Source of the DNA: Escherichia coli
Lineage (GTDB): Bacteria > Pseudomonadota > Gammaproteobacteria > Enterobacterales > Enterobacteriaceae
Strand: one strand, 5' to 3'
DNA length: 64,000 nt
Assembly: GCF_030013205.1 (NCBI RefSeq)
Contig: NZ_CP122648.1
Positions within the stretch are counted from its first letter, which is position 1; each line of letters starts with the position of its first letter. The position numbers are program-made. Shown piece by piece: positions 19,601 to 22,600 of this stretch.

Positions 19601-22600
19601 TGCTGCAACCAGGCGGCCTGAACACCACGTCGGTGAAAAGTGGACAGCAATGGGATGCGCCAAATGGCTGGGCTCCCCTGCAATGGGTGGCGACAGAAGG
19701 GTTGCAAAACTACGGGCAGAACGAGGTGGCGATGGACATTAGCTGGCACTTCCTGACCAATGTTCAGCACACTTATGACCGGGAGAAGAAGCTGGTCGAG
19801 TAATATGATGTCAGCACCACCGGAACAGGGGGCGGCGGTGGCGAATATCCATTACAGGATGGCTTTGGCTGGACCAATGGCGTGACGCTGAAAATGCTGG
19901 ATTTGATCTGCCCGAAAGAGCAACCGTGTGACAATGTTCCGGCGACGCGTCCACTCAGTGAATCAACAACACAGCCGGTAAAACAAAAAGAGGCGGAACC
20001 TACGCCTTAACTTTGCTGTATATCGAGCAATGCCATTATGTGCATAAAATTGGCATTGCTCTTTTTTCGCCACGAAATGCCCCCCATTCTACGGTCTATG
20101 CCTTTATTTTCTTTTATCAGAGAAGATTTTAATTTTATTTTATCAATTTGTTAATCATTACACCTCTATTTATATTTTTCGCCACTCCGCCATTCTCCCT
20201 GACAATTTTCTTGTGGAACAAAGTGTTATTTAAGCAACAAGCAAATCATTCTGTCTCTTTAGACAAATTTTGACATCAAACATGATTTTTTTCGATATAT
20301 ATGTAAATATATAGCGGTTTTAATTATCAGGATATAACTTATGTCACTAACCAGACGGAGGTTTACACAGATTCTTGCGTCGACGTTGTTCCTGCATCAT
20401 CTGCCTTCTTTTGCACAATCAGTCAAATTCTGGGCCTCACTGACGCTTCCCGAAGCCCAAAACATTACACGCATCGTCAGCGCAGGTGCGCCCGCCGATT
20501 TGCTATTGCTGGCTGTCGCGCCAGAAAAAATGGTCGGTTTTTCCTCTTTTGATTTTGCCCGTCAGGCATTAATTCCATTGCCAGAGCACATTCGCCAGTT
20601 ACCCAGGCTGGGACGACTCGCCGGGCGCGCCAGCACACTCTCGCTGGAAGGGCTTATGGCGTTACATCCCGATTTGGTCGTTGATTGCGGCAATACGGAT
20701 GAAACCTGGATCTCCCAGGCACGGCAGGTTAGCGAACAGACACAAATACCCTGGTTATTGCTTAACGGGAAACTGGAACAATCAGCAGAACAGTTAACAA
20801 CGCTTGGCAAAACGTTAGGCGAAGAGCACCGCGCCGCAGAACAAGCCAATCTCGCCAGCCGCTTCGTTGGTGAAGCTCAGGCATTCGCCACCTCACCCGC
20901 CGCTAACCTCAGCTTTTATGCTGCGCGCGGTCCTCGAGGGCTGGAAACGGGCTTACAGGGTTCGTTGCATACCGAGGCGGCGGAATTATTAGGTTTGCAT
21001 AACGTCGCGCCAATAGCCGATCGCCACGGTCTGACACAGGTTTCCATGGAAAATCTCCTGCGCTGGCAGCCGGATATTATTCTGGTTCAGGAGGCCGTTA
21101 CTGCAGATTTTATTCGTCGTGATCCTCTCTGGCAGGGCGTGAAAGCGGTTGCGGAACAACGCATCTTATTTTTAAGTGGCCTGCCCTTTGGCTGGCTGGA
21201 TGCCCCGCCGGGAATCAACCGTCTTCTGGGATTACGCAGACTTCACGCCTGGCTGGATCCCGCCATCAATCGCCAGTTTAAAAGTGACATGCAGCATTAC
21301 GCCCAACTGTTCTGGCATTGCCCATTAAGTGACGCCGACTATCAAAAATTGGTGGCGAGCTAATGAGAACCGTAAACGGATGTATTTTGCTGCTGGCAGC
21401 TATCAGTATCACTTTTGCCGCCGTAAGTGGGGCTTATCATCTCGATATACAGCAACTGCTGGCGCTCATTCTGCGTCAAGAAAATGTTCCTGTGCAGGAA
21501 CAAATTGTCTTCTGGCAAATCCGCGTGCCGCGTATTCTTGCTGCGCTGTTTCTGGGCGCGGCGCTGGCAGGGGCCGGAACCACCTATCAGGGAATGTTCC
21601 GTAATCCCTTAGTGTCACCGGATATTTTAGGCGTCTCCGCCGGTGCCGGACTTGGTGCCTGCGCGGCAATCCTGTGGGGATTATCCATTGTTTACATCCA
21701 GCTGTACGCATTTTGCGGCGGGCTGATGGTGGTCGCGGGCGTCTGGTTGATTACGCGTCGGGTGACCCGCCACGATCCGATCTTAACCCTGGTGCTGGTA
21801 GGCATTGCGTTAGGAACGTTGTGCGGAGCGGGGATATCGCTAATAAAAACGCTGGCCGATCCTTACACCCAGTTACCGTCAATTACCTTCTGGTTGCTGG
21901 GGGGGCTGTCCACCGTGACCTTACGCGATCTCTGCTATGCTGCACCGATCATTCTCATAGGCTCCTTGCCCCTGTTTTTTCTCCGCTGGCGCATGAATTT
22001 ACTCACGCTTTCCGACGACGAAGCCCGTTCGCTGGGACTGAACGTGACACGTCTGCGCTTTGGATTAATTGTCTGCGCCACACTAATCACCGCCAGCACG
22101 GTAGCAATAGCGGGCATAATTGGTTGGGTCGGCCTGGTCGTTCCGCACATTGCCCGCTTGTTGACCGGTCATAACCATCAGCAGCTGTTGCCCATGGCAA
22201 TGTGTACTGGCGCGATTCTGCTCCTGCTTACCGATACGCTGGCACGCAGCATTGGAACAACAGAAATCCCACTTGGCATTCTGACCGCTTTTGTTGGTGC
22301 ACCGTTTTTCCTGTTTTTGTTGTTACGCGGAGGTCGCCAGTGACTTTGCTTGCCGTCCGTCATGCGTCTCTGGGTTACTCCCGCCATCCGGTGCTACGCG
22401 ACGTGTCCTTCACCCTGTCGCAAGGAACAATTTGTTGTCTGTTAGGAGCCAATGGTTGCGGCAAAACCACACTCATGCGCTCCATTCTTGGCGTTATACC
22501 GTTATTAAAAGGCGAGATCTTACTGGATAGCCTCTCTGTGCAGACACTCAGCCATCGCCAGCGCGCGCAGGCTATTGCCTGGGTGCCGCAGGCGCACGAC

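Follow-up and report, generated by a model that had tools for sequence, protein, structure and literature searches.

The Escherichia coli genome analysed here carries a nonsense codon inside treA, the gene for periplasmic alpha,alpha-trehalase, and the question raised by this locus is whether the codon is real and, if it is, whether a functional enzyme can still be made. Throughout, the window denotes the whole 64-kb stretch of DNA that was analysed (64,000 nucleotides), and all of the features of treA lie on its plus strand. Translation of 18313-20010 in a single frame gives a trehalase of 565 codons with one internal stop, an ochre TAA at 19801-19803 that directly follows ...REKKLVE (local codons cgg gag aag aag ctg gtc gag TAA tat gat gtc). 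The retained reading frame of 496 codons (18313-19800) has the codon for Glu496 as its last. Beyond the stop, 68 untranslated sense codons for residues 498-565 (19804-20007) are still in frame and unchanged from the intact allele of strain W13-16, and they lead to the natural stop, also TAA, at 20008-20010; in all, 69 of the 565 codons (12.2%) are lost. A preliminary description of the locus had placed the stop after REKKLVE, had counted 68 in-frame codons between it and the natural stop with a loss of about 12 percent, and had called treA otherwise full length, and the sequence and its translation bear out each of these statements. It had also spoken of a 497-residue product, which needs correction: from the ATG at 18313 used by the PGAP annotation the product has 496 amino acids, and 497 is reached only by counting a TTG one codon upstream. 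The public protein collection holds the truncated TreA in its 496-residue form only.

That the gene is treA, as had been proposed, is established by three lines of evidence. The Pfam trehalase family (PF01204) matches the intact allele over residues 55-532 with an E-value of 7.9e-180, residues 31-496 of the window protein align with PDB entry 2jf4 with no gaps and three substitutions, and the gene order dhaR / dhaK-dhaL-dhaM-treA is identical in all nine genomes inspected. The crystallised chain 2jf4_A starts at query residue 31 (EETPVTPQ), which suggests that codons 1-30 (18313-18402) encode the signal peptide and that the mature protein begins at Glu31. Gene and fold are thus those of the intact TreA (Tre37A) of E. 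coli K-12, for which several structures are available (PDB 2jf4, 2jg0, 2jjb, 2wyn); unlike the K-12 enzyme, the window product ends at residue 496 of 565, and the window lineage additionally has a divergent, unconserved tail at residues 546-565. Both signature motifs of glycoside hydrolase family 37 (GH37) are encoded 5' of the premature stop, namely motif 1 (PGGRFxExYxWDxY) and motif 2 (QWDxPxGWAPxQ). Motif 1 is given in the form quoted in PMC10969515.

The two catalytic residues, the acid Asp312 and the base Glu496 (PMC9450901), are likewise both encoded in the truncated gene, with Glu496 forming the end of the chain. Glu496 has been reported as the catalytic base (PMC9450901), and the equivalent of Asp312 is the residue changed in the D380A ‘acid mutant’ structures of the Arabidopsis enzyme. 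A review that names ‘Glu469’ as the base (PMC7411730) was taken to have transposed the digits of 496, since PMC9450901 gives Glu496; the residue is conserved in 86%, the remainder being mostly Asp. A complete (alpha/alpha)6-barrel, by contrast, cannot be formed by the truncated product, from which domain residues 497-532, including the helix at 519-532, are gone. By descent the gene belongs to GH37, although what it encodes is no longer a complete member of the family.

We then asked how widespread the nonsense codon is. With 1,901 bases around treA as the query, matches were found in 5,323 of 5,426 complete E. coli genomes, in 5,317 of them at a coverage of at least 80%, so that some 2% of complete genomes are without a full-length match to the region. 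Only seven match at 100%. The next-best genomes differ from the window by a single base over the 1,901, and that base is position 19801, which is T in the window and in K_EC180 and A in the O139:H1 strain W13-16; the more distant relatives GF60 and 7/2 also have A. The intact codon is AAA for lysine, as the preliminary description had stated, and Lys is present in the K-12-type protein 2jf4. Comparison of treA alleles across related strains thus traces the stop to one A-to-T substitution, which turns the AAA of Lys497 into TAA. A shorter query of 61 bases centred on the stop likewise has exactly seven perfect matches among the 5,426 genomes. The carriers are K_EC180, ETEC1748, ETEC4067, ETEC4069, ETEC4070, ETEC4071 and ETEC4079, all of them isolated from pigs, six in Belgium and one in Korea (the Belgian pig origin was read in the records of three of the ETEC carriers), and they derive from at least two independent projects. 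In addition, the exact 496-residue product is encoded on about 15-20 further draft contigs, including the Logan assemblies SRR19716130 and SRR22895640.

These data bear on a first alternative, that the organism has an intact treA and the T at 19801 was introduced by an error in sequencing or assembly. Such an error might be suspected because a single base separates the window from its nearest relatives, and because some of the nearby differences between these assemblies are changes in homopolymer length of the kind typical of long-read error. The change in treA, however, is a substitution that lies outside any homopolymer. T rather than A is found in seven complete assemblies from two countries, one of which, that of the Korean Stx2e-producing pig isolate K_EC180, rests on PacBio reads with Illumina/Pilon polishing (PMC8071739). 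Logan assemblies of independent short-read runs predict the identical 496-residue product, and the T co-segregates with an allele of sirB1 some 19 kb away. Since the substitution is outside a homopolymer and recurs in many independent assemblies, T at 19801 is genuine and heritable and not an assembly artefact, and we regard an error at this position as next to inconceivable.

The distribution of the allele was examined further in an alignment of about 40 kb around treA, comprising five carriers (the window, K_EC180, ETEC1748, ETEC4067 and ETEC4079) and four non-carriers (W13-16, EC556, ETEC4068 and ETEC6333). Across these nine sequences there are about sixteen single-base differences and one deletion of 120 bp, which leaves not enough informative sites to build a tree from, and position 19801 is the only site that splits the five carriers from the four non-carriers. 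Just upstream of the window, sirB1 encodes WP_192297360.1 in all four carriers examined (K_EC180, ETEC1748, ETEC4067 and ETEC4079) and WP_001257044.1 in four of four relatives with intact treA. The two derived states are linked, lie about 19 kb from each other and have no conflicting site between them, and this one linked marker, together with 40 kb of alignment free of conflicting sites, points to a stop that arose once and would have been inherited vertically. The mutation also appears to be recent, because nothing else in treA has changed. W13-16 and P15-25 have been typed as O139:H1 ST1, the classical edema-disease clone (PMC8798679), and from its near-identity to these two strains the window probably belongs in or beside that lineage.

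What, then, does the protein lose? The truncated product is without residues 497-532 of the trehalase domain, which spans 55-532, and also without the 33-residue tail at 533-565. In an alignment of 89 homologues (33-57% identity), the fraction that has the E. coli residue averages 0.50 over 497-532, compared with 0.42 over 55-496 and 0.03 over 533-565. Positions K497, Y498, G517, G519, W520, T521 and N522 are each conserved in at least 90% of the homologue alignment, Lys497 itself is kept in 82 of 90 GH37 sequences, and the lost segment aligns with that of the plant trehalase from Arabidopsis (7e9u; EKLKVTELGEYGGGGEYMPQTGFGWSNGV). An AlphaFold model was built for the intact allele of the window lineage (pLDDT 92.5) and agrees closely with the crystal structure 2jg0 (TM 0.99, rmsd 1.0 Å). 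In this model the lost region consists of a strand (497-499), a glycine-rich loop (500-518), the last helix (519-532) and a disordered tail (533-565).

It could nevertheless be supposed that the stop is real yet the 496-residue TreA folds and keeps useful activity, so that there is little phenotype. Asp312, Glu496 and both signature motifs are all encoded 5' of the stop, and the unconserved residues 533-565 are missing from most homologues. But residues 497-532 belong to the Pfam domain, indeed to its better-conserved part, and include the last helix of the barrel. Of the 150 top-ranking homologues found among 1.8 billion representatives, almost all have an alignment that runs through query residue 525-532 or thereabouts. 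Moreover, because the stop replaces codon 497, the catalytic base Glu496 becomes the terminal residue of the chain, at its free C-terminus. Such a chain, lacking the last helix and the conserved loop and ending in its own catalytic base, has very little prospect of forming a stable and active enzyme, and we accordingly hold retention of useful activity to be highly improbable. Conservation and the structural model together argue strongly instead that periplasmic trehalase activity would be lost, as the preliminary description had thought probable.

A further possibility is that the stop is bypassed by readthrough or by an ochre suppressor, with enough functional full-length TreA being made. 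The 68 downstream codons are intact and in frame, as this would require, but the same is equally expected of a very recent mutation, and the carriers are almost identical to their intact relatives over 40 kb, which would leave too little time for visible decay. The sequence at the stop is UAA followed by U, a context that Poole, Brown and Tate are said to have placed, in 1995, among the most efficient for termination in E. coli. No recoding signal is apparent, and a scan limited to the 64-kb window found no tRNA gene. Nor would re-initiation help: the sole in-frame restart 3' of the stop, a GTG at 19882, gives a peptide of only 42 amino acids without a signal sequence, which would stay in the cytoplasm. 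Bypass at a useful level is thus more improbable still than an active truncated enzyme, if not quite as far-fetched as an error in the base itself, and termination after Glu496 is the expected outcome.

The end of the transcript is marked by an intrinsic-terminator-like hairpin on the same strand at 20025-20067, with a perfect 11-bp stem (GAGCAAUGCCA/UGGCAUUGCUC), a 15-nt loop and a following run of six U residues (RNA fold -20.1 kcal/mol, z = -2.9). A simple terminator scan restricted to loops of at most 8 nt returned nothing convincing 3' of treA and missed this hairpin with its longer loop. The hairpin and its U-tract suggest that the transcript ends with treA, in which case the iron ABC transporter genes, which start at 20341, should be free of any polar effect of the premature stop.

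Taken together, we propose that a recent A-to-T transversion at 19801 converted the AAA codon of Lys497 to an ochre stop, in one mutational event within a sub-clone of a pig-associated lineage that includes O139:H1 ST1 edema-disease strains, and that the allele was then passed on vertically. Translation would end after Glu496 to give an exported product of about 466 amino acids, which, without the final strand, the glycine-rich loop, the last helix of the (alpha/alpha)6-barrel and the C-terminal tail, would be misfolded or inactive. TreA enables trehalose to be used when high osmolarity blocks the PTS route (PMC10969515) and recovers trehalose that leaks into the periplasm (PMC10969515; PMC11228248). 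Carriers of the nonsense allele would lack periplasmic trehalase, and would be expected neither to use external trehalose at high osmolarity nor to recycle the trehalose that they leak; at low osmolarity they should grow normally on trehalose through TreB and TreC. We have high confidence in this account as a whole, from a genuine stop of single origin through a TreA that is expected to be inactive to a trehalose phenotype at high osmolarity.

The nearest functional equivalents of the allele would be the engineered treA null mutants of K-12 and of the extraintestinal pathogenic (ExPEC) strain BEN2908/MT78, which have no periplasmic trehalase. Such mutants do not use trehalose at high osmolarity (PMC10969515) and retain growth on trehalose at low osmolarity (PMC11228248), and the ExPEC mutant produces less type 1 fimbriae and better tolerates 0.6 M urea (PMC11228248). 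Whereas those are deletions that have been tested in the laboratory, the window allele arose naturally, by a nonsense mutation in a pig pathogen, and its phenotypes are predictions. One of them is simple, namely a failure to grow on trehalose when osmolarity is high. Since type 1 fimbriation and urea tolerance are changed in treA nulls of other pathogenic E. coli, carriers and non-carriers also form a near-isogenic natural pair that could be used to study these effects in a pig pathogen.

Whether the loss of treA was adaptive rather than neutral in the pig-adapted sub-clone is a separate matter. By analogy with the engineered mutants, raised periplasmic trehalose could aid tolerance of urea or osmotic stress, or type 1 fimbriation could be lowered, and the spread of the sub-clone between Belgium and Korea would then owe something to the allele. 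Against selection stand the single event in a single clade and the presence of other decayed genes within the same 64 kb, and an adaptive loss appears unlikely. The allele is an instance of ordinary gene decay, affecting an accessory catabolic gene in a host-restricted pathogen clone.

The allele itself is already known, in the sense that RefSeq annotation flags treA as a pseudogene. In all four carrier records inspected, PGAP labels it as ‘alpha,alpha-trehalase, internal stop’ and pseudo, with coordinates in K_EC180 identical to those given above. Over 1,901 bases the treA region of the window, stop included, is 100% identical to that of K_EC180 (NZ_CP062203.1, locus IGX36_RS14040), ETEC1748, ETEC4067 and ETEC4079. 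A literature search on the ETEC strain names found only the genome announcement of K_EC180, which does not mention treA, and the paper on O139:H1 isolates from wild boar (PMC8798679) mentions neither treA nor trehalose. The practical value of the finding is small and it raises no new question about trehalases or gene regulation, but a single base, T at 19801, cleanly marks a sub-clone of pig edema-disease and post-weaning-diarrhoea strains found in Belgium and Korea.

Outside the treA region the window differs from K_EC180 by two SNPs and a few indels. None of the complete genomes compared matches it throughout; ETEC4079, its best, though still imperfect, match, and ETEC4070 come nearest. The SNPs lie at 26674 and at 34278, the latter in dadX. 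Of the genomes compared, ETEC4079 alone has the C that the window carries at 26674, and ETEC4067 alone has its A at 34278, so that the two sites conflict with each other. An intergenic run at about 50055-50061 has six C residues in the window and seven in K_EC180.

Decay in this part of the chromosome extends to several other genes. The stretch of K_EC180 that matches the window has 8 pseudogenes among 63 features: treA, a TonB-dependent receptor gene, two hypothetical genes, ypjA, the two halves of a c-di-GMP phosphodiesterase gene split by IS2, and bluF. The receptor gene (24797-26766) belongs to a six-gene block at 20341-26766 that lies between treA and ymgE, is present also in other E. coli, strains 7/2 and GF60 among them, and encodes the substrate-binding, permease and ATPase components of an iron ABC transporter, a SAM methyltransferase, ModD and the TonB-dependent receptor. 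Located 3' of the transporter/ModD cluster, the receptor gene is frameshifted at 25856-25859, where the window has four A residues (GGGAAAAGG) and ETEC4079 and EC556 have five together with an intact gene. The state of this A-run is independent of the T/A split in treA, and could reflect either recurrent slippage or miscalling of the homopolymer in some assemblies. In GF60 it is the ATPase gene of the iron ABC transporter that has an internal stop of its own.

Further along the window, a hypothetical gene at 31954-33389 is annotated as frameshifted in all of the genomes of the lineage that were inspected, and in ETEC4068 it is missing 120 bp internally (32282-32401). The frameshifted autotransporter gene ypjA/ehaD, at about 50300-53830, differs in length from that of K_EC180 by +6 and -36 bases, which points to variable internal repeats. 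At about 58490-61350 (coordinates taken from K_EC180 with an offset of +30), IS2 splits a gene for a CSS-motif cyclic-di-GMP phosphodiesterase into two fragments. Finally bluF, which encodes a blue-light-responsive regulator and lies at about 63205-64000, is annotated as frameshifted in K_EC180, and with the disrupted phosphodiesterase gene this suggests that several genes of the ycgZ-ymgABC / bluF biofilm-regulation neighbourhood have decayed in the lineage.
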